DNA of 63,901 nucleotides, counting the filler, from Diploschistes diacapsis (lineage: Eukaryota): the NCBI GenBank assembly GCA_023645945.1. It is 11 parts of 11 records of this genome, joined end to end, with 100 filler letters (N's around TTAATTAATTAA, not from the genome) between each part and the next. Parts side by side here need not be neighbours in the genome. Positions count along the whole stretch, not along the records: positions 34,857 to 58,297 come from JALAIB010000264.1; 10 more parts are not named here. One strand, written 5' to 3'. Shown piece by piece: positions 25,390 to 60,389 of this stretch (within the stretch, counting starts at the first letter, position 1; the number at the start of each line of letters is the position of its first letter). Below the pieces are notes generated by a model, which was not told the DNA's origin, searched no databases, and saw only the letters and a program-made list of their open reading frames with translations. A program made the position numbers and the translations under genes.

Positions 25390-26240
25390 NNNNNNNNNNN
25401 NNNNNNNNNNNNNNNNNNNNNNNNNNNNNNNNNTTAATTAATTAANNNNNNNNNNNNNNNNNNNNNNNNNNNNNNNNNNNNNNNNNNNNAAACAATCCCG
25501 TAACTGTTACAACCCGTAAGTGACGTCGCGAGCTCTTACCGGATATCGATATTATCTAAATAACGCGTAACGTAGATCGTTAAACGACACGATACGTTCG
25601 AAAGAAAGCTTTCGTATATAAGAAAAATAATAAGACTTTTTATTATCCCGAAATTATATATAAAAATAACGATGAATATCGGGATTAATTTATTAAAATT
25701 TTAGAAAATCGAAAAATAATAGAACGATATGAAATTAAATTATTTAATTATTATTTCTTACGTTCATTTTTCACGGTTAATAAACGAAATAAAAGATATA
25801 ATAAAAAAACGTATTTAGCGATAACGTACAAAATAAAAATAAAATTTTAAGATTAAAATCACGTTAAAAATTTTAAACGAATAAATCATAAAAGCCGATA
25901 ATTTAAAAAAGTTTTTAAACTCGTTATTTATCTTGTTTTTTAGTAGGAAAAAGGCCGTAAATTATGAATCTTTTCGAAACTAACGATAAACGAAATAATG
26001 GATAGGATACTTTGGCGTTTTATAGAAGAAACGGGTATATAATAGCTGAAAATAGCCTATAAAAAATAAAAAGTTTATAATACGATAATTAAAGTTTAAA
26101 AAGAGATCGCCGATATAATTTAAAACGATTATTATTATAAGAAAAATATCTTATAAGATCGTGATTCGGAATATATTGATTTCTTACGTTTATTTTTCAC
26201 GACGTATAATTAATAATATATATTTTTAAATCGTTGCGTA

Positions 26241-27190
26241 ACGTGTTTCACGGGGATTCCGGCCACCCCCAGATTCCGGCTATCTCAAATCACTACCGCT
26301 AACATTTTACGGTTTTTAAATACAACCTATTCGTCGCAATCAAAATCTAATCGATCTAAATCGAATCTATCTTTCTCCTCTTTATCCTTCTCGATTTTAG
26401 AAACGCGACGACGTTTTTTACGCGTTATAAATCGTTTCGAAATTATCTAACTCGATTTAACTCGAACTATTATTTTAAGAATTTCGTCTGTGCTAAACAT
26501 AAAACGACCTTTTAATTTAATTCGTTTATCTAATTTACGTTTTTTACGATTATTAAGAAACGTTTTTTATTCTCGGTTTTCTTTACGAAACGTTATAAAC
26601 TTAATATACGTCGATTCAAACATACGGGTTACTCGACTCGAATAACGTCGAATCGAACTAATCAATTTTAAAACGGCTCGCAACGCCTAATTAAACTCTT
26701 TATTAACCTTTCGCAGTTCGGTCGCATTTAATAAAAAATTATATAACAAGAATAAATCTAAATCTAATTAATTCGTGGTTGAAAAAGGGCTATAAAATAG
26801 AAATAAAAGGGTCCGATAAATCGAATAAAGCTTATTAAACACGATTATAAAACTAATAAATCATAATCCAACATTTATAAAATCTATTTAAGCGTTTCGA
26901 TTTATAACAGCTCGATTCCGAGCTATTAAAAATAATTCGATCCATTCCGAACGTACTATACGCGATCTATTTAGTCGAGTAATATAATCCGTTTTTTACG
27001 CCAACGCGCTTTTCAACGGCGAAAACACTACGACATCGAATAATTAAAGAAAATAAAAATTATACGAAAATAATATCATTAAATCGATTCGATTAAATAT
27101 ATAAAAACGAATAATATTAACGGTAATATAATTATTATAATCGTTTATAATTAATAAACGACGCGTTTCGAATCGATTCGGTTTAATTAA
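26241..27190 (-). mobile_element. RIP-degraded Fot1/pogo DDE transposon, second copy with TIR
   Basis: TA|ACGTGTTTCACGGGG end at 26239-26255. Minus strand near 27000-27060 reads FL*LFDVVVFSPLKSALA, a RIP-damaged version of the DDE_1 motif LQPLDVGVFSPLK. Inner boundary approximate. Confidence 0.85.
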
Positions 27191-27452
27191 AGGCTTAATA
27201 AATTATTAATATCCGTATCTATCTATTATCTATCCTTTATTATTAATATTAAATAACCAGTTTCGAGNNNNNNNNNNNNNNNNNNNNNNNNNNNNNNNNN
27301 NNNNNNNNNNNTTAATTAATTAANNNNNNNNNNNNNNNNNNNNNNNNNNNNNNNNNNNNNNNNNNNNATTTAAGATATATAAGATCTGATTCGTTAATTT
27401 TTATGTTTTTTGCGATTTTTAATCGAAGTCTATAGTCGTGATATGTTGGAAT

Positions 27453-28044
27453 TAGGCTGGCCGTTTCGTGCCACGGTCACTGACACGGACACTGCAGCAA
27501 AAATTTTCAAAACACGGACACTGACACGGACACGACAGCTAAAATTTTAAAACACGGACACTGACACGGACACTACACTGCAGTAAAAGCACGGACACGG
27601 ACACTACAATTAAAAATTTTAAAATACTGACACTGACACGGATATTGCATTTCCGTGAATCCACCGAAATACTGCGGTGAATCCACCGAAATACTACAAT
27701 AAAATTTTTTTAAAAAAATAAAAGCGTGAGAAATAGGCGTGATAATTCCAGAATTATTAAAATTAAAAAAATAATTTAAAATGTTTCGGTAAATGCACGG
27801 ACACGGACACCGCAATAAAAAATTTTTCGACACGGACACTAACACGGATACTATATTATAATAAAAATACGGACACGAACACTGTAATTAAAAATTTTAA
27901 AACATTAATATTAACACAGACACTGCATTTCCGTAAATCCACGGACACGGACACCGCAGCTAAAAAATCTAAAACACGGACACTGACACTATCAGTGTCC
28001 GTGTCACTGACACGGCCGTGTCAGTGTCAGTGACGGCCAGCCTA
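27453..28044. mobile_element. MITE-like non-autonomous DNA element (hAT-like ends) with 12-bp TIRs
   Basis: TAGGCTGGCCGT at 27453 and ACGGCCAGCCTA ending at 28044; interior filled with GACACGGACAC subterminal repeats. No clear TSD. Confidence 0.7.
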
Positions 28045-29243
28045 TTTTATACCTTTATCGAAACGGGAATTGTTGTTATTTAGAACTGGATCATTCAGTT
28101 TAATATTTTTGAATGTTGGGATCGCCTTTTCATCCATAGAGGTCTCGTTTTTTATAATGACGTTGGTATTATTAAGGAAATAGGTTTATAGTAATTAATA
28201 TTTAAATGTAGAGGGAAGTGGACGATTCTTAATTTAGATTATGCTTTAAGCGTTCTTCTTATAGAACTGCTTATCGAAAGAATAAGCCTAGTTCTTTCTA
28301 TCTAGGATTGTTAAGGGCAATGGGTCCTTAGCCTGGCGATATATAAAGTCTTTAGGTAAGCAGTATTCGGTTCTTATTAATACTAAATTATATAACTGTT
28401 GGCTGGACGAATTATCGTATAACTTTTTTTACTGTATCGGTTCGAGAATTTTATTTTATTTATATTTTCCGGTAGTTGTTCGAGCGTTAATTGTGATAAA
28501 GTAAATATATCGTTAAAGATCTTTAATCTTTATATGACTAACACGTATATTTAATGGAGCCTTTTTTTTAAAGATATCAGGTTTTAGTTAATAGAATTGG
28601 TAAGTTTGGGTAAGAACGTTTAATCAATACCTAAAATAGTTAACCATAGATGCGGTAAGGTGGGCCCTATAATTAACGTAGAAAGAGACGGAAATCTTAC
28701 GAGCGCGGTATTAAACGCCCTTGTTGATCCATATCAATAAGGATAGCTAATACTGTCTATCCAAGGGGTTTAAACTTTAGAAACATGGAATGAAGTTTAT
28801 TAATCCGGATCAGCAAAAGTGGCTATCGTTACCTATTTAAGAAATTTAGACTCTAAAAACATAAAAAATGTACTTAATGATCCAGATCGGTAGGGTTACG
28901 TGTGGAAAACTACTTATAAAGGAATCCATGGAAGTTGATTAGACAGGATATTATTAACCGTTGGACGAGTTTAATGTTATAAGAAGCTGTTGTAGGAAAA
29001 TAAGAAAAGAATATATATTATAAATTTAAAAAAACAACGCTGAATAATAATAAATAACATACTTATTGTATACTGTTAGAAATTATATAAAAAATTTAAA
29101 ATCATAACTTCGCCCCAGTTTCGCTAATTCACTTACATAATATNNNNNNNNNNNNNNNNNNNNNNNNNNNNNNNNNNNNNNNNNNNNTTAATTAATTAAN
29201 NNNNNNNNNNNNNNNNNNNNNNNNNNNNNNNNNNNNNNNNNNN

Positions 29244-29413
29244 CGGACATTATAATTAAAAATTTTAAAAATATTAATACTAATACGGACATTATATTTC
29301 CGTAAATCCATGGACACGGATATCGCAGCTAAAAAATCTAAAACACGGACACTAACACTATCAGTGTCCGTGTCACTGACACGGCCGTGTCAGTGTCAGT
29401 AACGGCCAGCCTA
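29244..29413. mobile_element. Right end of a further copy of the same TIR element
   Basis: Near-identical to 27870-28044 and ends ACGGCCAGCCTA. Confidence 0.8.
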
Positions 29414-30155
29414 ACCTAAAGGTCCTCGAATATTTAATTTAATTTTAAAGATCGGATAATATATCTATATTTCCGCGAGTAATTGTGTCGTCGTTTTTTT
29501 ATATTCCGTTATATCTTTCGGAATATCGTTATTTTTCGAAATTTTATTTATTTTAATACTTATAGCTTTATCACGTTCTCGATTATGATTTCTTAATTAA
29601 CACGTTCTTTGATTAAGTCTCTAAACGAGGATCTTTTCCGTTCGGGTTCCTCGCGGGGGCCTTTCTTGGATCCTCCCGGTACTGATTCTTCGCTGGTATT
29701 AAATCTTTCGAAGGTTTCTAACGTTAATGATTGTTGTAACGCGGGATATCTTATGGATTGTTTTTTAATTAACGATTTATTTACTGAATTATATTCTTTA
29801 ATCGATAGTATCTCGATTAATTTTTTAAAAAACAAAAATATTATCGATTTTTTTTTCTTTTTTGATCCTTTTTATTAACGAGAGTTATTATTTATAATAA
29901 ATCGACGAATAATATTTTCGAGTTCCGGTTATTATGGACTTACTCGAATACTTATTTCGGTTAACGTTTTAAATTCTCGTCATAAATACAAAAATAAAGT
30001 AAGCTTTTCGAATATAAAACGCCAGCGCAGGAATGAAATATTATACTATCGGGGGCTGAGCTTGATCCGGAAGGATTACGTGTAGCTAGACATCTGTAGA
30101 TAAAAGATCTCGATTCGAAAAGCTAGAAAAAAAACTATTTAAATGGGAGGGTACA
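29414..30155 (-). mobile_element. Gypsy-type element: partial 5' LTR, priming site and gag-proximal region
   Basis: 30015-30150 matches the LTR family at 31453 and 32337; 29735-30010 is the reverse complement of 32603-32887. Confidence 0.75.
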
Positions 30156-30390
30156 TCACGAAAAGTTTTTGGCGGCGAAACACCGCGAAAATCCGCGAAG
30201 TTGGCGAAACTGGCGAAACCGGCGAGGTGGGCGACAGATAATGCGTTCAAGCGACTCGCCGTGTTTCGCCAAACATTTTGGCGAAACGTGGCGAAATCGG
30301 CGAAACCGGCGAAACCGGCGAAACTTAGCAAAACTGACAAAACTAACGAAACCGGCGAAACTGGCGAAATTTAACGAAACCGGCGAGGCC
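30156..30390. repeat. GC-rich array of (C)GGCGAAA motifs, probably the subterminal region of another DNA transposon interrupting the LTR
   Basis: Repeated GGCGAAAC/CCGGCGAAA units with a local inverted copy (TTTCGCC). Confidence 0.55.
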
Positions 30391-31115
30391 AATTATTTTA
30401 TACTTATATTTTATTTAATTATTACTCGTCTCGCACCTTTCATAAATATAATCATTTATTATTATAATACGCCTTTTTTATATTTATAATTATTAATCGA
30501 TACTATAAACGTAATATATAAAATCTATAATATAGACGAGATTTATAATATAAAAAAAAATTTATAATATAGAAGAAATTTATGATATAAAAGAGATTTA
30601 TAACGTAAAAGAGGTCTATAATAAACTAAAGAAACTATAATATAAAAAAAAATTAAATATAAATCTAAACGTAATATTAACGTAATAACCGGGCGTCTTT
30701 ATAATAATAACTATTATCTTTTTTATTTCTTCCGGGAACGTTTGCGATACAATAAATATCTTATTAATATTCTATTATAATATCGACGTCTTATATTATA
30801 AACAATAATACGTAACCTATTCTCGTTATATATTCCTCTCTTTTTTTTTATGATCTTTAAAATCTAATCTATCAACGTCGTAATCGTAGTATTTTTATTA
30901 TACGTAATCCGCATAATTAATCGATCGTCTTTTATTACTACTATAATAAACTTAATAAACGTCAGTTTATTAATATTAATACTATAAATCAACGAGAGTT
31001 CATACAGTATATAATNNNNNNNNNNNNNNNNNNNNNNNNNNNNNNNNNNNNNNNNNNNNTTAATTAATTAANNNNNNNNNNNNNNNNNNNNNNNNNNNNN
31101 NNNNNNNNNNNNNNN

Positions 31116-32300
31116 AACTTGTCCATTATAACCTAAATGCTGTTATCTAAAACACCTATTATTAGATCCTTAGATATTAATAGTTTGATTATAAAGTCTA
31201 TTATGATTATCTTTTATGGTTAATCTGGTTTCTCGATAGTTTAAAGAATCCCGTATCTTCTATACGTAGAATATTTGTTCTTTTAATATTTCTCGTATTA
31301 TTTAATAAAATTAATAATTTGTTGTTTCATTCCTTCGAAATGGCAGTTGCGTTGAATGGCTTTAATAGTAGTTATAATACCTTTATATCTATATTCCGGT
31401 GGATTATGATGTTATTATCTACAATTTTATATCTTTTTTATAAGAATGTGTATAAAACGCCAGCGCAGGAAAGGATGCTACTCTACCGGGGGCTGGGCCT
31501 GATCCGGAAGGATTAGGTGTAGCTTGGGCATCTGCAGGTAAAAGGTCTCGATTCGAAAAGCTGAAAAAGAAACTATCTAGATGGAAGAAAGGCACCGTTA
31601 AGTAATGTGGGTGTTAGACCTACCGGGGTTCGGGGACTACCCATCTATACAGCCACCCCCTGACCCTGCCGTGGCTTGGCAAGCACCTGGGCACTAACCC
31701 TGCCGTGGCTTGGCAAGCCCAGCTTGGCAGGCCCCTGGGCTGGGCTGTCTCAGTGTAGCTTCCGTCGTGTTACTAAATATTATTCTTATTGATCTTTTAG
31801 GATATTTATAACTGCTATAAATTCTCGAAAATCTGTCGTGAATGATCCGTCATTATTGATCTTTAATAGTTTAGTTTAACGTAGTTTTTTTATTATATAA
31901 TCTGGCCACTTATTTAACGCGTTAGCTCGTTCGTTTGTTTTATTTACGATCTTTTTAATCGTAAAACGGTATCGTCCGAGAATCTTTAATCAACGAAACT
32001 ATTTCGGGTTAAGTTTCTTTATTATCGTAAACTTTAGTAAATTTATATAATCTATATAGATTTCGATTTTCTTTACTTCGTGAATATAAATATACTATTC
32101 GTTTAAAGTAACGATTATGGCGAGTAGTTTTTAATCGCTTATATCGTAATTAATTTTTATTAATGATATCTTTCTCGAATAACAGGTTATCAGCCGTTAC
32201 TTATTATTATTTATTCGAAAGGATCCGAATAGAATATTATTAGTCTCGAGTAATATATTTAAATTAAAAAACCCGAAGAACGAGGAAAACGATCGAATAT
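31116..32300 (-). mobile_element. Ty3/Gypsy pol relic (RNase H to integrase region)
   Basis: Minus strand reads INYDISD*KLLAII...IYIDYINL...KLNPK*FR*L...NERANALNKWPDY, a RIP-damaged NYxIxDKELLAI...TDHKNL...ADALSRRPDY. Confidence 0.85.
31453..31752 (-). mobile_element. Solo LTR (300 bp) with 5-bp TSD, inserted in the Gypsy pol
   Basis: Flanked by GTGTA at 31448-31452 and 31753-31757. It is the reverse complement of LTR 32337-32602 plus an internal duplication of about 34 bp. Confidence 0.9.
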
Positions 32301-32336
32301 CGTAAGTCTATTATAGATTAATTAAAGCGCTACCGA

Positions 32337-32887
32337 TGAGACAGCCCAGCCCAAGGGCCTGCTAAGCTGGGCTTGCCAAGACACGGCAGGGTCAGGAGGT
32401 GGCTGTATAGATGGGTAGTCCCCGAACCCCGGTAGGCCTAACACCCACATTACTTAACGGTGCTTTCTTCCTATTTAGATAATTTCTTTTTCAGCTTTTC
32501 GAATCGAGATCTTTTACCTATAAATACCTAAACTACGTTTATTCTTTCCGGATCAGGCCCAGCCTTCAGTAAAGTAACGTCCTTTCTTACGCTGGTGTTT
32601 CATATTCGAAAAACTCACTTTACCTTCGCACTCGTGACGAGAGTTTAAAACGTTAATCGAACCAAATATTCGAGTGAATCTACGATAACCGGAATTCGAA
32701 AATACTACCCGCCGATCTATTATAAACAATGGCCCCCGCTGATAAAAAAGATTAAAAGAGAAAAAAAAAATCGATAATATTTCCGTCTTTTAAAGAATTA
32801 ATCGAGATACCATCGATTAAAAAATACGATTTAATAAATAAATCGTTAGTTAAGAAACAATCTATAAAATATCCCGCGTTACAATAG
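32337..32887 (+). mobile_element. 5' LTR (32337-32602, TG...CA) and start of the internal region of a Gypsy-type element
   Basis: TGAGAC...TTTCA ends, followed by ATTCGAAAAACT, which is nearly complementary to the LTR-internal AGCTTTTCGAAT. Confidence 0.85.
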
Positions 32888-33368
32888 NNNNNNNNNNNNN
32901 NNNNNNNNNNNNNNNNNNNNNNNNNNNNNNNTTAATTAATTAANNNNNNNNNNNNNNNNNNNNNNNNNNNNNNNNNNNNNNNNNNNNCTGCTTAACGATT
33001 TAGTTTCTTTAATTAACACTCCCGATATTCCTTACAGATTTATTTAATATTAACGTATATTTTATTTCATTAATATCGCTAAACTATCATCTTTTACGTA
33101 ATGTTATAGTTTCTATAACCAGATTAGATGTACATTTCTTTTAAAATGTATATCCTTTTATCGAAATTATCAATCATTCTTCTTACTGCCTATAAATGGC
33201 AACCGCGTCTAAAAAGTTCCTTATATTAGATCAGATACTGGGTAGTTTGGCGTTTCAAATTTCTAAATTCGGCATTAAACATTCCTGATAATTTCTATAA
33301 TATAATCAAATATTCTGCTATCTTTTAATATTTATTAGAATACTAAGAATCTAGATTTAAAATCATAG

Positions 33369-34275
33369 TATAAACACAAGGCGCGCTGTCTAGGGAGACT
33401 TCCCTTGCTGTAGTAGGTAGGTAATCGTAGGTGGTGTAATAGGTGAATGTAGTGTGATCTCGTAGTCAACAGCATACCCAGGTAGGACATTTGTGAGGTG
33501 TAGGATGCATTCCTTGTCTAGAGCTACCTAGCAGGCCTCTTTAAATGGAGCTGCCCTTCGGGGACTACCCCACTAAGTCTTATAGCTTACTTTTCTGTTT
33601 ATATACGACCCCCCCCTCGACAGTTCGCTGCCCCATAACGAACTTTATATAGATCTTATTAACCGGAAATCTTTTTCCGGCTATCTATATCCTAATATAG
33701 TTTTGTATTTTTTAAACAATCGAAATATTTAGAAACCTATCATTTTTAATATTCCCTTCTCGACGTAATTATATTTTAAACGTAATAATATTTCTGAATC
33801 TATTCTTTTATATTTTATTCTCTTGAATACGGCAGGACAAAAAGGCGGTAATTATTTAAAGATATTTTTAACTTTTACCGTATTTATATTATCCGTAAAT
33901 ACTCTTTAAAAAATATTCTTATCTTCTATAATATTCTTACCATCCATTAATATTCTTTTAAACAAATATAATCAGCAGTATGTCCGTCCTTCTTATCTTT
34001 TTTTTATCTCCTTTCCCGTCTCGTTATTACTAATAAAAAGTCAATTACAGATAAATAAACAAAAAAGTAGATAAAGAAATTTATCACAAAATTAAGCAAG
34101 CTATAAAGCACAAGATAAGCATATTAACACATAAAAAAATAAGTACGTAAGCAAGAAAGTATTTAAAGGATAAACAAGAAAGCAAGCTTATTAAGAAACG
34201 AGCAGACAACCGAACAGCCATATAAATAAATAGATACTACTTTTTTCCTATTATCGGCCCCTAGGGTCTTATAAT
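33369..34275 (-). mobile_element. 3' LTR (33369-33603), PPT and 3' internal region of a further LTR family
   Basis: LTR ends TATAAAC...GTTTATA (RIP form of TGTAAAC...GTTTACA); adjacent CCCCCCCTC is a minus-strand PPT. Colinear with 58796-59705. Confidence 0.75.
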
Positions 34276-35624
34276 ACTAACTCTAACTTTTAAGCATATA
34301 ACCTTCAATCAAAATGGTTCCATCTTTTCATAAACTTTTTCTATATTTTTTTCTCTTTATTTATAGTTTAGATATTTATAGGCTTACTTTAAAAAATAGA
34401 TTACGAAGATTTCTAAGGATTTTGAAGAGCATTACCTAACAATACGCCAAAGGAAATACAACGTTTTTTAAACTTAAAGAAAAAATTTCTTTTCCGCCCT
34501 TTTAAAGACGAAATACGATTATTAAAAAATATAAAAATAAACGTTATTTCCGGACGAGAATCTAGACGTAAATAAAAAAAAGAACGAAAAAGAAGATCAA
34601 ATAAATAACCTTGATCTAAGCATAAAAAAGATAAAATCCAAAAAAAATAAAGAAGAAGAAAACGAAAAAGACCTTATAAGAAAATAAATACGGAATAAAA
34701 TTAAGGATTAAATACTGAAAGTAAGCCTATAAATATCTAAACTATAAATAAAGAGANNNNNNNNNNNNNNNNNNNNNNNNNNNNNNNNNNNNNNNNNNNN
34801 TTAATTAATTAANNNNNNNNNNNNNNNNNNNNNNNNNNNNNNNNNNNNNNNNNNNNATATGGGATCTAAAAGGCTTTAATACTTTTATAAAATAAATATA
34901 TGTAATTTTATTTTTAAAGCATACCTACCTTCGCCCTTATTATATAAAAATAATCTTTATGGTTATAACCTCAGGTACTCTTTCGTGTGTATTTTAAGGA
35001 AGTAATCGCAATATCTATAAGCATTCTGATAAAAGAAATTCGATTGCCGTAGAGAAATAATTTCAGAAAACGTCCCGTGCTTAAAATGTAACCATGCCCC
35101 TTTTATAGCTTTCTTTCACGCTTTTGGTTATGTCTGTTTTTTAATGCAATCCCTTATCTCTGTAACGCACGTTACGATTCGCCCTTACGATGTACTTTGG
35201 GGATACGTTAGTATATATTAGTGCTTAGTCGAGTCAAGTTCAATTTGGCTATTTATCGAGGATGACGGATGAGGCACTTTCATCCCTGTGTTCCTTTTAG
35301 TGTCTTTATCGATCCTCTTTTTTTTCGAAAGGGTTGTAAGATCAGCCTTCAACGTGCTCTTCAGTATGTATCGAGGTAAGTCTTAATTATGAGCGGGGGA
35401 TTTGCCAGGACCTTGAACGAATGCGTCGTTGAACTATTTTTTGACTTCTTTAGCTGCTGTGCGTGTCTTGGTAGGTTGCGGCTCTTATAGCATCGAAACG
35501 TGTTTTGAGGGTTTTTACTTTTACAAGAATAGGGAATTTTTACTCTTATTCCGTTTTGTTCTTTGCTGAGTTTTTTCTGGTACTATTTTTCTAATACTTT
35601 ATATTTTAATTCTATCATTTTATT

Positions 35625-37119: not shown

Positions 37120-37664
37120 TGGGGCCTGGGGCGAGGCATGTAGGAGGCTTTGACGCCTTGTGGACTGCGAGCTCTGATTCGTAATATGTTGAAGTTTTTC
37201 TTGTAGATAATATGGAAAACTTAGTGACGCTTGTAAAGTTGTTTGAAGTCCACCATTCATACTCGGCTCGTAAGACAGTCACGTGAGCAAAGATAGAAGC
37301 CGCTATGAACCTTTTTTGTCACGCTGTTTACCCTCGATGCCTGAGCTCTTCCGGGTCTCGCTATTCCTGCCATGAAGAACGTAGGCGATGAGACTTAGGT
37401 GACAAGTGCTTTGCATCTTTCTCGACGAGGCTCCGGGAATATAAGCATCCTTGCTCGCTCGCCGGAGTGGGCGATCAATAGCACAGCCTTGCCGATGTCT
37501 CATCTCTACCTCAACAATTCGCTTCACTTGACGTCTCACGGTAAGTTCTCAACAGGACCAAAAGTCTCAGAACGCCTCGACGCTATCAACTTTTCCCTTG
37601 ATTGTGAGCACCATCACCCCATTCAGTGGAAGAACAAGAAGTCGTCGCATAGCGCTGTCCTGCT

Positions 37665-40600
37665 ATGTCGTCGCTGTGGAGCTCAAGGATTCAAACGACA
37701 AAAGCCACCAATGGATGCCGAGACAATGAGGCGCCAGAAGATGCCAGTATCGGCAACATTCTAGCGATGGCGTACCAATCGTTGGTGCAAATTGAAAACA
37801 GTCTCCTGTTCGCCGACAAGTTTCTCGGAGCAGGGTCTGTGTTCCAAGTCAATCGCGAAATCTACAAAGAGACACATCATTCGCCACTGAGCTACTACGT
37901 AGCGGTCAAATACATGCGACTGGAACAGCGCCCGGAGACCCGTCGCCAAATTCTCACTGCGCTGACCAGGGAGTTGAAGGTGATCACACATTCGGTGCTT
38001 CGGAGCCATCCTCACATCTGCTCGGCCCTGGCGTTCGGTTTCACCAATCCTAATCTCGGACAGCCAAGGCCGTTTCTTGTGATGCCATATGCTGAATTTG
38101 GCACCCTGTCCGAAGTTCTTCAAGCTGTACGAATGCACAGGCAGATATCAATCCTTGAGCAACGGGACTTGGCGTTAGACGTCGCGTTGGGTCTCCAAGC
38201 ACTGCACGAGTCTGGATTCATTCATGGCGATGTGAAAACCAACAACGTTTTGGTATCTAGCCGCTCTTATCCCCTAGGGTACGATAGCGGAAATGATGGT
38301 ATTCCGTGGATCGCTAAAGTGGCAGATTTTGGTTCGTCTTTGAGTCGAGAAGATGCTGAAGGTCACGCTTTTCACTACACCGGGACCGCGCTCTATAACG
38401 CGCCTGAGATCGAAAATGGCGAGGTACTCCGTGACAGAGTCTTCGAAGCATACAAGAAGGCTGACACGTACTCTTTCGGGCTCCTCCTCTGGGAAATTCT
38501 AGAATCAGGGTCTTTCTATCTCGACACGATCAAGGAATATGACGCATTAATCGCGCAAAAACGATATAGAGAGTTCTTGCAGAAGACTCATGATAGGTCT
38601 GGAAATGCAATGTTTAAAATAGCTTTAACCTCCCTTCAGGATGCGAGAGATGAGATCACCGATCAAAAATGTTGGGACAAAATAGTAAGGACCTTGGAAT
38701 CATGTCTGAACAGGGAAGGCCGTTTCCGAAAAGACATGAAAAGGGTCGCCGAGGAGCTTCAAGGAAGCATAGTGTACGCTGTTTGTTTTTCTTTGATGTG
38801 ATTGTGCTGATTCAAGGCTCGCAGATCCGACAGATCTCCGGTTGTCTATTCTTTGCCTAAATTAACGAGCCAGCCAGTCACGAAGCCTACTATGGTCGGA
38901 CCCTTACCGCAGAATAGACCTTATCCTATCATGACCCCCGGACTGTGGCAGCTACAACCATTCCGCTCAACAGAAGTTCACCCAACGGGCACGACCTTCC
39001 GTCCCATACCAAGAGATGCAGTTATGAAAGACAGACTTCTCATTCCGTATCGAAGACTAGACTCGCGCGACCTTGAGACGCCGCAATCTCGCGAGTGTAA
39101 TGGGCTCAGCCTTCAACACGTGTGTCACTCCATCTGCCAATCTGAAGTGCTGCCGTTGTGTTAACGCTATACTAGGCGATTCTGTCCCCGCTCCCACCTC
39201 GGGAGATTCAAGAACGCCTGGTTGAACAGTGGGAGACGCAGGTACACAATGGTCAGGACTCTAAAGTCATTTCGCAAGCTTGCTTGGAATTGAGTATATG
39301 CCATTACTTCGGCTTTGGATGCGAACCAGATCGACTTGCATCCCTCCAATTTCTACGGCAAGCCTCTTTTGGAAGCACTACCGCGAAAGCAATCGTCGGC
39401 CGTATCTCCGCCGCCTTTCTCAAAACCAAAGATGGCGGAATCGATAATGAGAGACCGTATAATGATGGAAAGGACGCAGCTTATTTCAGCCAGCGTCTCC
39501 TCTCTACGAATTCTACCATAATAATGCGTCCCACTTTGCAAGCAAAGCCTCGACTTTCTTTGAGACCTGGCCATTACCCAGATAGTTCGAGAGTCGAGCT
39601 CGTGATTCGGCTAATCCGTCAAGAACTGGACTGTCGACAAGATATGAGAGGTAGTGTGGACATCAACCGCCTCGAGCAACTGTGGGCAAGTCATATTCGG
39701 AAGGAATCAACTCCATTGGAAAGCCTATCTCAACTAGACATCTCAGCATCTCTGACAGAGTCATGCAGATTGGGACTCTTTGAGACTGCCAAAGCCTTAG
39801 CAGCCATGTGTCTGCAGTTCATAGGCAGGTTCGGGAATCCCAACCCTCTACATTGGTTGATAATGTTCCCACCGGATCAGGCCCAATACATTGCAGAGCT
39901 ACTTGTGCTCGGAATAAAGGGTAAAAAGCCCTACGGGATCTGCTTCCATTGTCTTAATTCTCGGATTTCGTCTATTACCTTTCTACCTGAGCACTGTATG
40001 GAACTCATTGGAACCCCACTTCATTGGGCTGTTCGTGGCCGAAACCTCGCTCTCGTAAGAAAGCTCTTAGATTTAGGCGCTGACATGGCAGTGAGATATG
40101 CACCACATGTTCCAATTCTGGGGGAGCCGCCAAGCATCGGTCGTGCAGCTTATAGTCCGCTGGATCTTGCCCTCGAATTTCATCTACACGAAATTGCTGA
40201 ATTATTACTGGACCATAGCCGACTTCAAGGTGCAGGAAACGAGCTCGAGATAGCTCCCTCTATCATGGCCCATACTGCAACGCCCTTCTCCCGCTTCATT
40301 ATCCACGGGCCATATTATCGTATTGCTCTACGGAAGACTATAGAGGTTCTGTCTCGTAGAGGCTACAATATCAACAGATCAGACTACTTCGGAGATCAGC
40401 CACTCCTTGTCTCGCTGAGAAATGCCGCTCATGAGGAATACATTACTGAAGAACTCCTCAAGGCTAATGCATACCTCAGTGAAAGCTTGCCAGGAAACGA
40501 CAATCTGGCAATCCTTGTAGTTCTCAGCGCAGGGACAGATCATCCATCAAGAGCATTTAAACTCCAACAAATTCTCCATCTCGTTGAGGATCTTAACGCT

Positions 40601-41569
40601 TGTAACGACAAAGGATACAATGCGCTCCATTACTGCGCTTTCACTAGCAATGCCTCAATGGCAAAAGTCCTCCTTTCATCAGGTCAGGTCGATATCAGTG
40701 CCAAGAGCTCAAATAAATATCAAAGTACGCCACTCATCATAGCTGCTGAATATGGCGGAGTCGCAATTTTGAACATACTGCTCGAGGTAGGGGCAGACCC
40801 AGATTCTTCCAACGCTCGTGGTGAGACCGGCCTGGAGTGCGCGATCCGCAATCGACAGTATGAGACTGCCTCCTTGCTGATTGAGCACGGTGCTTGCCTT
40901 TGTTTCCGTTCTCGGAATTCCGTTCCTCAAGACACAGTTCTACATGCGGCGTGTGTTGGTCCTAGCAATCGACCTCCGCTTGTAAGACGCTTGCTCATGG
41001 GTCACGCCAAGCTTCGGGAACATGACGTTCTTCACCAGACCATTGATAAACGTTATGGATTCGGGGCGAAGACTCCACTTCATCAAGCCATCATGTTTGC
41101 TGATCTCGACTCCGCCAAAGCACTCTTGGAGTACGGAGCGGATGGGAACTATTGGACGCATCCTCCGGAACTTGATGCCTCAAACCGGATTACCAAGATT
41201 CTCCACAAACAAACGGCCTTTGACTTTCTCAACCGTCTTCTATCAAGGGCGAAGACCAAGGGACTTTATGGCGAACAGATTCAAGCGGCTCGCCAGGGAC
41301 AATTGCAAAATTCGAGATTGATCATGAATGGCAAATACTTTGATCAATCACAGGAGAGACTCGAATGGGAGAAATTCGATGGCGTGCCACAATTCAACAT
41401 TCGACTGGAAGAGATACAATCTCAGCAACAAGGTCAAGCTGGAGTGCGTAGCTTCATTGCCCGTCTTGAAGAGATAAGGCGGATCATGGTGACACGAGGA
41501 TGCGAAGAGACGGACCCAGAAACTCTGCGGCTTCCATTTCTACTAAAGCAGTCGAAAGAAAGTGAATAG
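37665..41569 (+). CDS. Protein kinase - SEL1-like repeat - ankyrin repeat protein, 2 introns
   Basis: LGAGSVF, YVAVKY, HGDVKTNN, ADFG, YNAPE, DTYSFGLLLWE; LELSICHYFGFGCEPD (SEL1-like); TPLHWAV, NALHYCA, TPLIIAA, TPLHQAI (ankyrin). Introns about 38774-38824 and 39120-39175. Confidence 0.9.
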
Positions 41570-41710: not shown

Positions 41711-42911
41711 TCACGAGGGCAGATTTCCTACGAAGACGACCATGACCGCACAATAAGCCGCCGTCGCCGAGAATATTTCAAAATTTCGTGATTCCGTCAT
41801 GCAAAGGGCTGCGGAGAAAGTCGTGGTGAAAACCGCTATCGCCCAGATTCTGGAGAGCATCATGTCCATAGTGTACAGAACAGTAATAGGCACAATCAAC
41901 GTCAGAATGGCAAGGACTGCGGTCAGAAATCTTGAAACGGCGGATACCCGTTGAGCCGAAAATTGGACAATGTGTTGGTCAGTCGACTTTTCGCGGTCCT
42001 TCTACAGACTAGTCAGCTAAGCTGTGTCTGCGGGCTCGAACGAACAGAGCGCGTACTGCGACACCAAAAATCTGCTGCGCGTCAGATCACCTTCATGTTC
42101 TTGGGTGTGTATAATCTTTACCCAACTGAATCCGTGCTCATGCAGTCTGACGGCACATTTCTCCAGGAACCAGTCTAATCCAGCGTGATCGGCCGGACCT
42201 TGCGGAGCGCTCAAATCCTCCCAGTCCTGGAAAGCTACCGATTCCTGGGGCGTCAGGGGTTTGTTACCTTCGAGCCAGCGGCAGATACTCAGTATCTGCG
42301 ACTCGCGTGGCTTTCGCCGTTCGACGTGGCGGTAATACTCGTTCAGCAGTTTATCTTCGATCCAGATAAGCTACGGCGAACTTCTTGGAACGAGTTTCAT
42401 CAATACCGTAAGCTAATAGTTTGCAGCTGATGTTTGATAGGAGGTCTTGGCGATGCGTATTTCTATCCTGCCGTCGCGAGTGGAGGAAGAAAGAGGTACA
42501 CTCGTTTCGGTCCAGATCGTCAAGCTGTTCCTGCAACTCAAGAATCTCATCTTGCTTGTGCAGTAAGACCCGCGTATGCAAACGGCTGAATTGTTTGAAT
42601 ACGCAGAGGCTGCGGTCGCTGCTCAACAAAGCTGCTAAGCGGGGATAGCCTGGGCGATAGTTTTCGACTATGAACGTCGCTATCAGGAGACATGGCACTT
42701 TCGAGATCAAGAAGAGGATGGCAAGACATACTGATGCCACTCTTATGCTTGAAGTAGGGTTTGCTACGGGATGGGTTTGCTGTCTGAGAGACTATGTTCC
42801 CAAACGGTGAGCTACATTCTGCTGAGAGATGCGGAACTGACCTCTGGCTCGTTTAATGAAGTTTGGGACATTGCCGCTCGGGTCTTGACTGCTTCTGTAG
42901 CTACTTGCCAT
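41711..42911 (-). CDS. DUF6594-like fungal protein with C-terminal transmembrane helices, about 4 introns
   Basis: ENYRPGYPRLAALLSSD..FKQFSRLHTRVLLHKQDEILELQEQLDDLD; C-terminal LTLIVPITVLY..FTTTFSAALC..EIFSATAAYCAVMVVFVGN. Probable ATG at 42911 with GTCAGT and GTATGT introns; the start is less certain. Confidence 0.85.
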
Positions 42912-43204
42912 TTTCAGTCTGCCTGGTAGATTCAGTATGGAACAGGACACGAAGTCTTCGGGGCCAGCAGTATGTGCGACTACATGTAAATGCAGGCGCG
43001 GCGTAGCTACGGCAATGTATCATGCACCAAGTTTGAGAGGCTAGCCGTTTGGGACTTTCTAGACCTCAAGATGCAATGTCAGGCAGGCATTCTGGGCATT
43101 AATGCAGCCTCGCAGTCTTTCTTCACAATCCTCCGTTCACGACCTTCCAACCGGAGCCTGTCTCTCTCAGTCTTCTCGGGCACAAAGCGTTGTGGTAAGA
43201 TGTA

Positions 43205-43589
43205 TCATGACGTGGGTACCACCAAAGAATCCTCCCGTACAAGACCATTGTATTGCGCCCCAGTGACCTGCCACTTCAGTCTGTATGAAGTCCCTTCGAT
43301 TGCGACCACGACCAGCGGTCCTTCTGGTGGTGCCTGATTGCTCGTGGCAACGTAAACCACCTCGTTGACAGAATATAGGGGAGCGCTCGGAAACTGATGT
43401 CTATCTCGTCAGAACCGTTTCAAAGGCATTGGCGGCTGTACCTGAGCTTTGCTCGCATATTCCCTGACGTGGGCTTTCCCGTCTGGAGGCGTATCCGGCA
43501 AGACCGTGGGCTGGATGTCAGCTTTAGACAAGGCATTCGTGTATTCATGTGTCGAAGAGAGGTACCTTTCTGTCGTTCAGATCGGCCAT
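43205..43589 (-). CDS. 93-aa three-exon microprotein with predicted SH3/Tudor-like beta-barrel (not in the ORF track)
   Basis: Exons 43589-43566, 43510-43442 and 43393-43205; introns of 55 and 48 nt with GTAC donors, CTGAC branch sites and CAG acceptors. Product: MADLNDRKPTVLPDTPPDGKAHVREYASKAQFPSAPLYSVNEVVYVATSNQAPPEGPLVVVAIEGTSYRLKWQVTGAQYNGLVREDSLVVPTS. Confidence 0.78.
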
Positions 43590-43821
43590 CCTCTTCGCAG
43601 CTCAAATCTCCGAGGACCTATGGATATATCGAGCTTTCCTGAGAAGGCGCTTGAGAGGATCAGGCCGAGAATCTGGAGACTCATGCAAGGCTTAGGGCCC
43701 CCCTTGCCTATTGATCTGTTGCGGGGTGCGCAGCCTTGCGCAATGTACTGATCCTTGAACCGCCTTGGCTTCGTCACTTTCGCTGGGAGAGGATGTATGG
43801 AAACGCAATGTATACTGAAGC

Positions 43822-46101
43822 ATGGAATCGCAGGTTATAAGCACATTTACTCAGCACAGCGCTGCCTTTTTCAAAGACCGATCAGACTACGATAGTGTCA
43901 CTGTCCTGCTGCTCTATTGGCGTGACGGGGACCTAGAAGTCGACGAGGAGCTCAAGGCAGTACGGAAATTATTCGGTGCATCGTTGAACTTTGTCGTTGC
44001 CTCGTACCCAATCCCGGGCGATGGAACTCAACAGGCAAGGCTCTACAGGCAGATCGCCAGCGTCGTCGAAGAATCAGCTTTGCAGCCGAGGAGTCTCTTG
44101 ATTCTGTACTATACGGGCCATTGCAGGGAGACAGAAGGTAAAGCTGAGTGGGCTGCGTGTGTGCTTTTCTGCCCCAAGATCGAATAGCCTGCTCTAATTG
44201 CTGAATTAGGAGAAGACGAGGCGGCTCAACACTAATATGGTCGGATATACAACGATGTTGCTTTGGCGCAATCGGTGATGTTCTGCTGATACTCGATTGC
44301 TGTCATGCTACCCTGTTCGCTAAAGGTCGTAAGGATTGCGGCAGGTTTGAGATACTCGCGGCATGCGCCAAAGGACTTGAATCCCCTTTGCCTGGACTTG
44401 GATCCTTTACCTGGGCTCTCTTGAAAGCTTTGTCGGAGGAGCGTCTAAGAGATGGAATTGCAGTACGAAAACTGAGAGGCTTAATCGAAGATTACTCAAG
44501 AGGTGCATCCCGGACCTCTGTGACAATGAATCCGTCACTGATGCTGTTTGATAGAGACACCGTTCTGGGACTCTTTTGGCAGCGATAGTGTTGCGACTAT
44601 CATCATCAAGCGCCTTAAGCCGTCTTCACATGTGGGCTTCGCCAAAAAGCCCGCAGGATATGTATTCTTCCGAGCATCACTGGTAGATGATTTGGATGGG
44701 CTTCAGATATCGGACTGGCTCAAGACCAATGCTCCGGAAAACGTATCAGCTATACACATTGAAGCTGTTGTCTCGAAAGCCCGCCGGCTACAGCGCAATC
44801 TTGACCATGGCGCTTTCGCTCCAACCTCTATCCTACGAAAGCTCTCGACAACAGCACAATCAGAAATATTGAGAGAATTGCAGTCTCTCGACACGGTTAT
44901 GGCGAACTCTAGGCAGGCCGCATCGGATACCAAAAAACGTGACAATAGTAGGGCAGATAAGGATGTTTTCGAGGCTATGCAGAGCACCATAGATGAAGTC
45001 AGCAATCTGATTGAAACACCAATTCTTCTTGATCTGAGCGAAGAAAATATAGACCGTGCAGTTAAGGATGACGATGCTGTTCCTCAAGATATAATAGAAA
45101 ATATCTCGCTTCGCAACCAGATCATGGCTTCAGACGAAGACCCCAGAACTTCATACGAAATACCTCGTCAAGATATCGAGTTCGAGGACAACTTGAATCG
45201 GTTCAATTATGGCCGGATTGGCGAACAGAATGTACTCCTGGAATTCTTCGGGTACGAGACGGACCAGAACGGAGATCTCTTCCCGGAAACGGTTCAGCAG
45301 CTTAATCTAATGGCAGCGCGTTTGTGCCACAGCAAGCGCCTAAGCTTTCACATCCTTCCATGCCTCGGTTATGTCGAAGACAAAGTCGAGTGTCGATTCG
45401 GACTCGTCTACCAGCTTCCGCCCTTGCTGAGCGCAGCACGCTTATGGGTAATTTCGTTGCACTCACTGTTCACTACCATCCACCGGGTATCTCTCAGCCA
45501 GCGCATGAAGACGGCCTACGCAATCATTACAGCCTTGGAGAATTTCCATCGCATAGGTTGGATCCACAAGGCCATCCGCAGCGACAACGTCTGCTTTCTC
45601 GTCAAAGACAACAGCTTGGAAGCCGTTGACAACAGGAAAGGCGACGGCGGCGACGTCGACTTCTCCTCCCCGTGGCTGATCGGGTTCGAGTACGCCCGCG
45701 CCGGCGCCGCCGGCAGCAAGCTCGAGGAGGACTATTCCGAGGTGCGGAACCTCTACCGGCACCCGGACCGCTGGGGCCGGCCCGCGGCCAAGCACACGCG
45801 CGCGCACGACATCTACTCTTTGGGGGTCGTGCTCATGGAGATTGGCTTCTGGAAGGCCATCGACCAGGTCGTCGCTCCGCCCAAGCCTGGCCAGCGCCGC
45901 GTCGCGGCGGCGTTCAGGGAGAGTTTGATGCGCAGGCTGGAGCGCGCCCTTCCGCACCAGACCGGTGACGTGTTCGTGGCGGCGGTCAAGGCTTGCTTCG
46001 ATTACGAGGGGGAGGTGGTTGGTAAGAGCGAGTTCGAGATGCAGCAGATCTTGCAGAGGACGGTGCTTGCGCAGGTGAAGAAGATTGTGAACAAAGTGTA
46101 G
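43822..46101 (+). CDS. Caspase-fold (clan CD) protease fused to a C-terminal pseudokinase domain, 2 introns
   Basis: VTVLLLYW, LLILYYTGH (His at 44119), DVLLILDCCHA (Cys at 44298), EILAAC, SFTWAL; C-terminal WIHKAIRSDNV, LIGFEYAR, LYRHP, DIYSLGVVLMEIGFW. Introns about 44157-44209 and 44503-44554. Confidence 0.88.
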
Positions 46102-57579: not shown

Positions 57580-58795
57580 ATCCGCTATTCCTACCCAAAC
57601 CCCATTCTCGAGTGGAATGGGCTAGCCCTACTCCATGCTCTGTGACGTCCACGTCTCCACGTGCACGGTGGCGACTTAACCCCGCCCGATTTCATTTCAA
57701 CTGCCCTCTTCATCCCCCAAGCTGCAGCATCCACAAATCACACGAGCAACTCAATGAAATGTTTTATAGCACATGAGATAAGGCTCTCTCTTCCAACTCA
57801 ACCGGAGGGCCCCTTGAAGGTAGGCTCGGACAAGTGGCACCTCCCTGCACATGGGACTGACAAAGATCCCGTCAACAGCCCGGCTCAGCTAGAAAAAAGG
57901 TTGGGGGAGTGTCAGAATTGCGCTTCCCTCTCTTCCTATAGAGGGCAATCTAATTTGAACTGTTCGCGGTTGCGGGTAAGGGAAGAAGCGCTTGTAAGCG
58001 CATCATTACAGTATTATTCGGGTTCTCCGATATCGAGACTACTCCTTCTCGGGCTGTTGAGTCGGTCGGGAGAGATTCACACCTGCAACCCCTAACCCAG
58101 GGTCGCGACGTCGAAATACCTTAGGAGCCCCCCCCCTTCAAGTCCTTCAGTCCCTCCGTGCCCGGGGCAGGCCTTCCAGTCCACAGCCAGTTTGACATCC
58201 TTCACCGACACCAACCGAACCCAATCCCAGCCCAGCCGACCAACCTCGGTCAAACCAATCCAAGCATGGCCCCCTCGCCGCCCCCCTCCTCCTCTTCNNN
58301 NNNNNNNNNNNNNNNNNNNNNNNNNNNNNNNNNNNNNNNNNTTAATTAATTAANNNNNNNNNNNNNNNNNNNNNNNNNNNNNNNNNNNNNNNNNNNNAGA
58401 GGAGTGCAAGCAGGAGAAGAAGGTAGAGCAGTTACAGGTCTTAAATTGTTCTCTAGAAAGAAAGCTTTCTAATAATAGAAATAACGAATATAGATTAATC
58501 TCGAGCAATAATTTAAGATATTTATAAAAGTAAACACGTCTTAAACTTATAAAAACCATAGCGACGTTCTTATATAATTAACAGCTCTTTTAACAGAATA
58601 GATAAGTAAATAAATAGAATTACCGTTCTTTCTTTTTATTTACGACTAGGTAAAATAATCTTTAAAACTTTCTATTCATTACGTGACCCGTGTCACCCTG
58701 ATTGGACTATATATAAGGAATAGCTGGGAAGTGCCCGACTAGCTGTTGCGTGCCAAGTACTGCCGAACAGTACCTTGGATCGTAACATCTTATAG

Positions 58796-59705
58796 TATAA
58801 ACACAAGGCGCGCTGTCTAGGGAGACTTCCCTTGCTGTAGTAGGTAGGTAGTCGTAGGTGGTGTAGTAGGGGAATGTAGTGTGATTTCGTTGTCAATAGC
58901 ATACCTAGGTAGGACATTTGTGAGGTGTAGGATGCCTTGCTTGTCTAGAACTACCTAGCAGGCCTCCTTAAATGGAGCTGCCCTGTAGGGCCACTCCTAT
59001 TAAGTCTACGGCCTACTTTTATGTTTATATATGATTCCCCCTCTCGATAATTCGCTGCCCTATAACGAACTCTATATAGATCTTATTAACAAAAAACTTC
59101 CATCCGGCTATCTATATCTTAATATAATCTTATACCTTCCAGACAACCGAAATACTTAGAAGTTTATTATCCTTAATATTCTCTCCTTAACGTAACTATA
59201 CTTCTAAACGTAATAATACTCCTAAACCTATTCTTCTATATCCCACTCTCTCGAATCACGGTAGGACAGAAAAGCGGTAATTATCCAAAAATATTCCCAA
59301 CTTTTACCGTATTTCTACTATTCGTAAATACCTTTCTAAAGATATTCCTATTTTTTATAATATTTATACCATCCGTCAATATTCTTTTAGACAGGTACAA
59401 CCAGCAACACGTCCGCCTCTCTCATTTCTTTCCCTTTTCCTCTCCCGTCTCGTCACCATCAGCAAGGAGTCAACTACAAATAAACAAGTAGAAGAGCAGG
59501 TAAAGAAATTTATCACAAAATCAAGCAAGCAATAAAGCACAAGGCAAGCAAGTTAACACATAAAAAAGCAAACACGTAAGTAAGAAAGCACCTAATAGAC
59601 AGATAGGAAAGCAAGTTTACCAAAAAGTTAATAGACAACCGAACCGCTATATAAATAAATAGATTTTATTTTATTATAGTTATAGGCCCCTAGGGTCTTC
59701 TAATA
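58796..59705 (-). mobile_element. Second copy of the 3' LTR (58796-59029) and internal region of the 33369 family
   Basis: Colinear with 33369-34275, differing mostly by C/T and G/A changes. Confidence 0.8.
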
Positions 59706-60389
59706 CCCATTTTTTTTATCATGCTACCCACTCATTCCCGTTCCCTTCCTCCTTTTTTTCCCTAGATTCCACCTTTTTTAAACTGAGATCCAGATTATCT
59801 TCTTCTTCTTCATCCTCTTCCTCCTCTTCTTTCTCCTCCTCTTCGTCCGGAGGAGGCGCAAACCTCCTTATTTCCCAGTAATTTATTCCTTCCTTTATCA
59901 ATATCCCAAAAAAGCTCTTTTTAATAGAATTATATAGCTCCTATTCGGCTGATTTAATAATAAAGAAATGCTATTTTAGCGCTAAGGTTACCTTCTCGAT
60001 CCATTCTCGGAAGTAAATATTTTTAATTTCTAGCCTGAAAATCTTTATTTATTTTTTTATAATTAAAGGATCCGTCCATTTTCTTTTTTTTATTAAAACG
60101 TCCGAGATTGCCTCAAGCCCGGTAACCTAAATTACCGCTTTAAAGAAGTACGGTACGCTTTTATACNNNNNNNNNNNNNNNNNNNNNNNNNNNNNNNNNN
60201 NNNNNNNNNNTTAATTAATTAANNNNNNNNNNNNNNNNNNNNNNNNNNNNNNNNNNNNNNNNNNNNGTTATAACTCGTACGAATCGAGAAGGGTGTCCGC
60301 TGGCTATAAATATCCGCTCGCTATACATATACGTTATATAATCTCGTAATTTATCGTATTAAATTTATTCGATTCGATCTAACTCGTCT

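Follow-up and report, generated by a model that had tools for sequence, protein, structure and literature searches.

The locus and its genes

The DNA examined here is a stretch of 63,901 nucleotides, filler included, from Diploschistes diacapsis (GCA_023645945.1; 11 parts of 11 records joined end to end), which is referred to below as the window. We concentrated on positions 43205 to 43589, where an earlier note, made from the sequence alone, had proposed that a spliced microprotein of 93 aa lies hidden on the minus strand. We show that a gene is present here, that it is conserved and under selective constraint, that its product has the predicted fold of a small beta-barrel, and that it sits in a conserved neighbourhood with three other genes: one for a caspase-like protein, one for a DUF6594 protein and one for a kinase with ankyrin repeats (Table 1). 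The reading that we favour, with a probability of about three in four, is that this is a real, separately terminated three-exon gene whose 93-aa product, a tail followed by a barrel, serves as an adaptor or regulatory subunit of a four-gene module.

The reconstruction with two short introns and canonical splice signals was reproduced exactly in the window sequence. The joined coding sequence (CDS) of 282 nt and 93 codons contains no internal stop. The junction at the end of exon 1 is AAG/GTACCT, and readthrough of intron 1 leads to a stop. Because exon 3 has no Met, and readthrough of the introns hits a stop or shifts the frame, the gene is missed by listings of open reading frames (ORFs), and it is apparently unannotated in the D. 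diacapsis genome. The start of exon 1 is like the N-termini of two family members, P0024 and P0010. No second copy of the spliced product was found by tblastn within the window.

Table 1. Exons and introns of the microprotein gene and the features that surround it, in window coordinates.
Feature	Position	Strand	Description
Exon 1	43589-43566	-	ATG at 43589; 8 codons
Intron 1	43565-43511	-	55 nt; GTACCT donor, GCTGAC branch point, CAG acceptor
Exon 2	43510-43442	-	23 codons; disordered tail with the G-K-A-H-V-R-E-Y form of the family basic motif
Intron 2	43441-43394	-	48 nt; GTACAG donor, CTGAC branch point, CAG acceptor
Exon 3	43393-43205	-	62 codons and TGA stop at 43207-43205; predicted SH3/Tudor-like beta-barrel domain
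Divergent intergenic region	43590-43821	.	232 bp from ATG to ATG, between the microprotein and caspase-like genes; putative bidirectional promoter
Caspase-like (C14-type) domain and DUF7580 putative pseudokinase gene	43822-46101	+	724 aa; introns 44157-44209 and 44503-44554
DUF6594 putative membrane protein gene	41711-42911	-	PF20237; introns 42406-42355 and 42064-42002; candidate ATG 42911
Kinase, Sel1-like and ankyrin repeat gene	37653-41569	+	Convergent with the DUF6594 gene; domains from Pfam; 5' end provisional

Homologues, splice junctions and selective constraint

An exhaustive HMMER search of 1.84 billion representative sequences with the exon 3 peptide (P0001) gave 25 matches at E<=1e-3, the best of them at 3.7e-13 with 59% identity. 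Twenty are fungal proteins that are either small (58-153 aa) or, in one case of 349 aa, fused to DUF6594, and the match occupies the C-terminal 55-60 residues of the small proteins and the N-terminal part of the 349-aa protein. The other five (P0013, P0015, P0023, P0026 and P0027) are large bacterial-type repeat proteins with PKD, fn3, DUF11 or FGE-sulfatase domains, or no clear domain; they were left unaligned and set aside as short chance or compositional matches. A search with the family profile recovered 27 proteins, with E values down to 6.5e-34. Sixteen of these bear names, all of the hypothetical or uncharacterised kind or similar, and 15 of the 16 names give a fungus. The sources include Exserohilum, Curvularia, Alternaria, Lophiotrema, Fusarium albosuccineum and several lichen fungi, and further members come from Amniculicola, Glonium, Fusarium sarcochroum, Lasiodiplodia, Hypomontagnella and a Xylariaceae species. 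The family spans the classes to which we take these genera to belong, namely the Dothideomycetes, the Sordariomycetes and the lichen-forming Lecanoromycetes, and it is uncharacterised and without a Pfam entry. Exon 3 matched no Pfam family at E<=1, nor did ten family members at E<=0.1, the small barrel-bearing proteins giving only sub-threshold matches to TRAM_2, LPD15 and Integrase_p58_C. A word-index search with exon 3 yielded no candidate among the products of 34-109 aa in the protein collection, which does contain the product of the neighbouring gene.

Five residues of the barrel, V13, P23, G25, P26 and Y37 in exon 3 numbering, are invariant across 20 sequences, and the window product is significantly similar to the family over the whole barrel, these five residues included. 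Two motifs had been put forward as likely to be conserved. One of them, EGP, corresponds to a P.GP motif that is present in 47 of 47 family sequences, whereas the other, AHV, is confined to the closest relatives. A scripted alignment showed the spliced window product to be collinear and gap-free with its relatives through the exon 2/3 junction, where it reads G-K-A-H-V-R-E-Y...Q/F-P-S-A-P (the slash marking the junction) against G-K-A-H-V-D-E-Y...E-F-P-A-A-P in P0005; other members have the general form G-x-[FY]-[RK]-x-[RK]-V-x-x-Y...[FY]P.[AP]P. In the Alternaria alternata protein P0043 (113 aa), comparison with P0005 reveals a 16-residue insert exactly at the position of the window's intron 2, which suggests that an intron of about 48 nt, in frame and free of stops, was annotated there as coding.

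Ten metagenome loci (L001-L010) were retrieved with a profile of the lichen subgroup, towards which they are biased, and all models with an ATG and two introns were enumerated in five distinct ones. The best model in each of L001, L003, L005, L008 and L009 is divided into three exons by two introns, which are 42-65 nt long and carry branch points of the CTRAY type; intron 2 always sits 0-2 codons upstream of the [FY]P motif. In exon 3, synonymous change between L001 and L005 is saturated, with differences at 36.7 of 45.2 sites against 19.3 of 140.8 non-synonymous sites, and the ratio of non-synonymous to synonymous rates (dN/dS) for L001 and L003 is 0.15. The homologues, the gap-free alignment across the junction and the recurring three-exon layout all support the proposal that the gene is real and spliced as drawn. 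The homology check suggested in the earlier note thus gave a positive answer in both of its parts, since there are significant homologues and the related loci adjoin caspase-like genes.

The position of the stop is likewise conserved, with 41 of the 47 family sequences terminating 3-8 residues past the last strand; the six exceptions are four models fused to DUF6594, P0037 and L003. At L003:6193-6228 the stop has been lost and the frame is extended by ten codons, which is the sole extended tail among the five locus models and the window.

Chance controls and alternative gene models

When introns were required to be 40-90 nt long, with a GTR donor, a YAG acceptor and a CTRAY branch point close to the latter, just three candidates in the 600-bp region passed this strict splice filter, namely the two already proposed and a variant of intron 2 with a TAG acceptor. 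By chance, a three-exon CDS of at least 93 aa arose in 2 of 200 dinucleotide shuffles of this region, and 2 of 84 other 600-bp tiles of the window also contained one. At these rates the reconstruction is unusual yet not decisive by itself, and it is homology that settles the status of the gene.

Use of the TAG acceptor at 43401 had been raised as an objection to the model. This acceptor passes the splice filter, but the C-terminal part of its 108-aa product lies in a non-homologous frame, whereas the homologues match the frame spliced at CAG; since TAG shifts the frame and loses the homology, CAG at 43394 is taken to be the productive acceptor. A rival start, ATG 43548 with another intron 1, has a similarity score of 204 against 203 for the model from ATG 43589, and as the two score alike the 5' part of the model (exon 1 and intron 1) is less secure than intron 2 and exon 3. 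ATG 43589 is the first ATG, and its model has the better branch point. On the plus strand an ATG-initiated ORF of 115 aa (42990-43337) overlaps exon 3 and the downstream spacer; it is without homology and, given the homology and the codon-level constraint on the minus strand, we consider it unsupported.

Predicted fold of the exon 3 domain

With a 20-sequence alignment AlphaFold2 gave a model of the exon 3 domain with a mean predicted local distance difference test score (pLDDT) of 86 and a predicted template modelling score (pTM) of 0.68. Strands are predicted at residues 12-15, 24-33, 36-41 and 47-53, and after a short turn comes a last strand, which is also short. Foldseek placed the model on the LBR, PHF20, TDRD3 and SMN Tudor domains, PWWP domains and retroviral integrase C-terminal domains in the PDB (E 0.035-0.15, template modelling (TM) score 0.6-0.69). 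VIA-align, which is independent of Foldseek, gave Z 7.1 for R67 dihydrofolate reductase (DHFR), the MRG15 chromo barrel and a PWWP domain, and Z 6.5-7.0 for KOW, Tudor and a designed SH3-like barrel, the listed matches ranging from Z 7.1 to 5.7. The SH3/Tudor-like pattern that had been read from the exon 3 peptide is thereby borne out by the structural model, and the C-terminal 62 residues are confidently predicted to form an SH3-like small beta-barrel of the Tudor/chromo-barrel/KOW class.

Searches by sequence did not extend this to a named family. The Tudor, chromo, PWWP and MBT models of Pfam matched neither exon 3 nor the ten family members at the thresholds given above, the family profile found nothing meaningful in the PDB (YfiO, E 0.99), and exon 3 retrieved from the ESM Atlas only unnamed viral clusters and one R67 DHFR cluster, at 0.88-0.91 (0.88 for R67). 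The invariant aromatic residues are Y14 and Y37, with Y7 nearly so; most members have Tyr or Phe at position 27, where the window has Leu. With no more than two invariant aromatic positions, there is no clear sign of a conserved cage for methylated Lys or Arg.

The predicted barrel is like the solved Tudor, chromo-barrel and PWWP domains (LBR, 2dig and 2l8d; PHF20 Tudor 2, 3p8d; MRG15, 2f5k) in having five strands in about 55-60 residues, and it superposes on them at the TM scores given above and at VIA-align Z 6.8-7.1 over 54-58 residues. It is unlike them in its sequence, with 10-20% identity, no Pfam profile match and no evident aromatic cage, and in its setting, since the microprotein is a stand-alone protein with a disordered tail whereas the Royal family domains are modules of chromatin proteins. 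The barrels of R67 DHFR (1vie), Spt5/NusG KOW and the retroviral integrase C-terminal domain score equally well (Z 7.1-6.5) and have no sequence relationship to it, so that the general fold is all that is common.

The N-terminal tail

The tail survey covered 31 family sequences with a tail of at least 20 residues. A regular expression for the basic motif had matches in 19 of them and overlooked variants such as F-K-Y-R-S-R-V. The conserved element of the tail is a basic motif of the [FY][RK]x[RK]V..Y type. In its full form, G-x-[FY]-[RK]-x-[RK]-V-x-x-Y and then [FY]P.[AP]P.LY, the motif is encoded across the intron and is present in the window, whose variant, G-K-A-H-V-R-E-Y, is common to P0005 and P0043. 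A GRT-like N-terminal motif occurs in 24 of the 31 tails and an acidic Ser/Asp/Glu stretch in 20. The window and its closest relatives P0004, P0005 and P0043 have neither, which is a difference between subclades and no ground for excluding the window product from the family.

An Asp-Gly pair in the window's tail had been suggested as a protease site. The residue that precedes this Gly is Pro in 11 of the 19 motif matches and Asp in the window alone; Asp-Gly is therefore not a family feature, and this part of the proposal is not upheld. A basic cleavage site or a phosphorylation site in the tail is possible.

A conserved four-gene block

In the metagenome loci tblastn detected the C14 and kinase-like gene divergently upstream of the microprotein gene in ten of ten cases, and DUF6594 downstream on the same strand in all nine with enough flank. 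The ankyrin gene is convergent in the eight (L001-L008) that extend far enough, and its kinase domain was found in seven of seven. The 46630 ORF and the peroxidase and major facilitator superfamily genes that flank the block in the window had no tblastn match in the loci. The divergent gap from ATG to ATG, given for the window in Table 1, is 216, 214, 284, 286 and 356 bp in L001, L003, L005, L008 and L009, respectively.

Microprotein identity between the window and the outside lineages, of which there are about three by this measure, is 37-44%. Two lichen-type groups are 68-76% identical in the microprotein, and L009 is 45-48% identical to both. L001 and L003 are 95% alike in the barrel, L002 and L004 look close to L001 by tblastn coordinates and identities, and identical tblastn rows were obtained for L005, L006 and L007 and likewise for L009 and L010 over their common stretch.

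The pairing of the microprotein with the C14-kinase orthologue gains independent support from public genomes. The two have consecutive locus tags (443880 and 443881) on one contig of 18,270 bp in Glonium stellatum, in Amniculicola lignicola the scaffolds that carry them have the same length (516,955 bp), and the contigs of P0009 and P0052 likewise agree in length (179,424 bp). Between fungi the block orthologues are 28-55% identical in protein. The divergently transcribed caspase-like neighbour to which the earlier note had drawn attention is thus retained in every related locus examined and adjoins the microprotein gene, by locus tags, in G. stellatum, and this conserved pairing makes a functional link between the two genes plausible. 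The same-strand DUF6594 neighbour, of which the earlier note made no mention, is equally conserved. The conserved order and orientation points to a functional unit and, to our knowledge, it is unusual in filamentous fungi for both to be kept at such divergence.

Genes neighbouring the microprotein

The N-terminal 210 residues of the caspase-like protein bear the motifs YY[AT]GH (His) and LDCC (Cys-Cys), a catalytic His and then a Cys being the expected context of C14 peptidases. YY[AT]GH is present in five of six sequences (L003 is cut short there) and LDCC in all six. Among the orthologues, P0065 reaches 32.2 bits against a PF00656 cut-off of 21.4, P0064 (E 0.032) and P0067 (E 0.01) match weakly, and P0054 and P0058 do not match. 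The sole PDB profile match of the domain is a weak one to Metacaspase-4 (E 0.63); a PDB sequence search found nothing meaningful for the Cys half and, for P0065, kinase matches only (E ~0.8). The C-terminal part gives weak DUF7580 and Pkinase matches, with HKA and GFE at the positions of HRD and DFG, the motifs of active kinases, and this kinase-like domain looks like a pseudokinase. More distant paralogues of the domain combine HeLo (PF14479) with DUF7580, an MLKL-like architecture.

Some public models of this gene are irregular. P0050 seems to read through the second intron. Two orthologues of the pseudokinase, P0063 (Lasiodiplodia theobromae) and P0066 (Neofusicoccum parvum), are named 'MOSC domain-containing protein', and P0063 has 859 aa and MOSC domains, which suggests either that two genes have been merged in the model or that the neighbour is another one in Botryosphaeriales.

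The DUF6594 gene would start about 290 bp downstream of the microprotein gene, and its protein has a conserved N-terminal peptide, R-P-G-Y-P. A candidate first exon runs from ATG 42911 to a phase-1 GTCAGT donor at 42842, and a matching phase-1 CATAG acceptor, preceded by CTGAT, lies at 42669 after an intron of 174 nt; the FIKRAR of this exon resembles FIQRQAR in an ORF at the corresponding place in L005 and L008. The enumerated first intron of this gene is untrustworthy, as no reference covers that part. In the AlphaFold2 model of the orthologue P0004 (pTM 0.36) the DUF6594 part, which is of low confidence, is a helical hairpin with hydrophobic C-terminal helices, and it is from these predicted helices that a role at the membrane is suggested. 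The ESM Atlas gave nothing for DUF6594 outside its own family. A predicted complex of the barrel part of P0004 (residues 1-87) with its DUF6594 part (88-270), computed without an alignment, scored 0.01, a value that speaks neither for nor against an interaction. In the convergent gene the kinase domain has intact-looking VAVK, HGD..N, DFG and APE motifs and so appears active.

The window comes from an ascomycete. Other long frames in it encode ATG11, CENP-H, Sof1, RPN6, a GMC oxidoreductase and a tyrosinase, and the neighbouring proteins of the block are most like those of Pleosporales. AT-rich blocks at 23511-34856 and 58298-62134 have a G+C content of about 29-38% and resemble the products of repeat-induced point mutation. 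They hold ten pairs of 44-base N runs that recur every 1.87-1.88 kb, and these look like the regular masking of a repeated unit and not like assembly gaps.

Discussion

We have argued that the three exons form a gene of their own, and that its product may be a small adaptor or regulatory subunit of the four-gene module. It would then be co-expressed with the protease-pseudokinase from a shared promoter, the barrel could recognise a short linear motif in one of its partners in the module, and the conserved basic and acidic tail might be a regulatory element that is phosphorylated or cleaved. Such co-regulation and physical interaction, like any role in regulated cell death, are what we infer.

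A number of points weigh against this reading. The splicing and the independent transcription of the gene are deduced by comparing sequences, and as the locus models were ranked by their similarity to family proteins the agreement in intron position is partly built in. The closest pair of loci, L005 and L008, has a dN/dS of 0.71, from 13 changes only. L001-L008, from one series of records, fall by sequence into just two lichen-type lineages and L009 is identical to L010, so that the comparisons amount to about four independent ones and not ten. The structural matches tie, and a Z of about 7 is typical of so common an arrangement, so that neither a domain family nor a ligand can be named for the barrel. 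The caspase-like assignment of the divergent gene is also weakened by Pfam, for PF00656 had no match in the window's two exon pieces and its cut-off was passed by one of five full-length orthologues. To these must be added the public models that join the barrel to DUF6594, which are considered below.

It might be asked whether a gene exists at all, or whether a chance open frame has been picked from a divergent promoter or 5' untranslated region. The exon 3 frame is short, 67 codons from stop to stop and one of 123 frames of at least 30 aa in 5.5 kb, and it has neither a Pfam family nor a word-sharing product of similar size in the protein collection. A chance frame would scarcely have homologues at E 3.7e-13 and profile matches at 6.5e-34, nor would it keep its protein under saturated synonymous change, conserve its introns or yield a confident fold; we regard the idea as hardly credible and, as far as sequence evidence reaches, already refuted. 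A separate question is whether the exons are the 5' exons of the DUF6594 gene, the barrel being the N-terminal domain of a fusion that is either the sole form or an isoform. Fused models are deposited as P0004 (Amniculicola), P0036 (Teloschistes), P0029 (Pseudevernia) and P0047 (Xanthomendoza), all with the same barrel (60% identity over 58 residues in P0004, KAF2001716.1), the two genes are adjacent on one strand in nine of nine loci, and in the window, L001 and L005 the first DUF6594 exon with strong conservation lacks an in-frame ATG, so that DUF6594 needs an exon upstream. Against a fusion stands the position of the stop: five of the six spliced models (the window, L001, L005, L008 and L009, L003 being the other) are among the 41 of 47 sequences that end just past the last strand, and a stop inside an intron would not stay in place. 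A fused transcript also requires an intron of about 0.4-0.85 kb, where the other modelled introns in the block are of 41-65 nt, and the upstream exon needed by DUF6594 could be supplied by the candidate start exon at ATG 42911. The C-terminal Val-Val codons give GT dinucleotides that gene callers could mistake for donors, and the fused models skip the conserved stop and join across the long gap, unlike the window gene; they are most likely the merging of two adjacent genes. On balance a fusion is distinctly improbable.

A different relationship to the caspase-like gene was also considered, in which the microprotein is a direct substrate or inhibitor of the protease and is cut in its N-terminal tail. 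Metacaspase-type C14 enzymes cut after Arg or Lys, and the tails have conserved basic positions in the [FY][RK]x[RK]V motif and, in most cases, the GRT-like motif. The divergent pairing, with its short common gap, is conserved as well. Fungal cell-death executioners are activated by clustered proteases, according to two articles (PMC8851545, PMC12881547). The Asp-Gly pair, by contrast, is peculiar to one of 19 motif matches, the window tail is without the GRT-like motif and the acidic stretch, DUF6594 is equally plausible as a substrate, and the C14 protease is itself putative in its activity and specificity. We consider such cleavage unlikely, and retain the adaptor or regulatory subunit as the preferred role of the microprotein.

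A broader interpretation is that the block is an undescribed regulated-cell-death or immune-type module of fungi, built like a necroptosis or pyroptosis pathway, and this can be entertained only tentatively. The active-looking kinase with ankyrin and Sel1-like repeats would sense a signal and act on the caspase-like protease at its pseudokinase domain. The DUF6594 membrane protein or the microprotein would then be processed by the protease, and the microprotein, as a guard, inhibitor or adaptor, could restrain the executioner or the protease up to the point where the microprotein's tail is cut or phosphorylated. Two articles (PMC12881547, PMC8851545) describe fungal cell-death clusters of two or three genes in which a membrane-acting protein encoded in the cluster is activated by a protease of the S8 or CHAT type, in many cases one that is fused to repeats or to a kinase-like domain, and HeLo-like domains that are fused to pseudokinases, as in MLKL. 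The block resembles the HET-Q1 gasdermin/HET-Q2 protease clusters in having a protease fused to a kinase-like domain, a putative membrane protein and a small conserved cluster, and it is linked to the HeLo/HELL-pseudokinase and MLKL-like proteins by the distant HeLo and DUF7580 paralogues of its pseudokinase. It differs in that its protease is C14-like and not CHAT or S8, its membrane protein belongs to the orphan family DUF6594, and it has in addition an active-looking kinase-ankyrin gene and the microprotein. Pfam found no gasdermin of the HET-Q1/RCD-1 type in the microprotein or DUF6594, the genes on the microprotein side, and there is no HeLo domain in the block. The adjacency of an active-looking kinase and a pseudokinase effector recalls RIPK3 and MLKL, as a likeness between genes. 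Our search of the literature found no mention of DUF6594 or DUF7580 and, judged by titles and the opening of abstracts, no account of this block. In the portions of the fungal cell-death reviews that were consulted neither Tudor domains nor this gene combination was found; the term 'Tudor' does not occur in that part of the 2025 review, nor 'C14', 'metacaspase', 'kinase-like' or 'small proteins' in that of the 2023 review. The four-gene module is thus apparently undescribed.

The microprotein gene illustrates that small spliced genes without a Met in their longest exon are routinely missed. If the block is indeed kept as a unit at 28-55% protein identity across classes of the Pezizomycotina, it would be an ancient selectable unit comparable to the defence operons of bacteria. 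Should it prove to be a cell-death or stress-signalling unit, it would provide a compact, genetically testable system of four genes and a first point of entry to the function of two uncharacterised domains.

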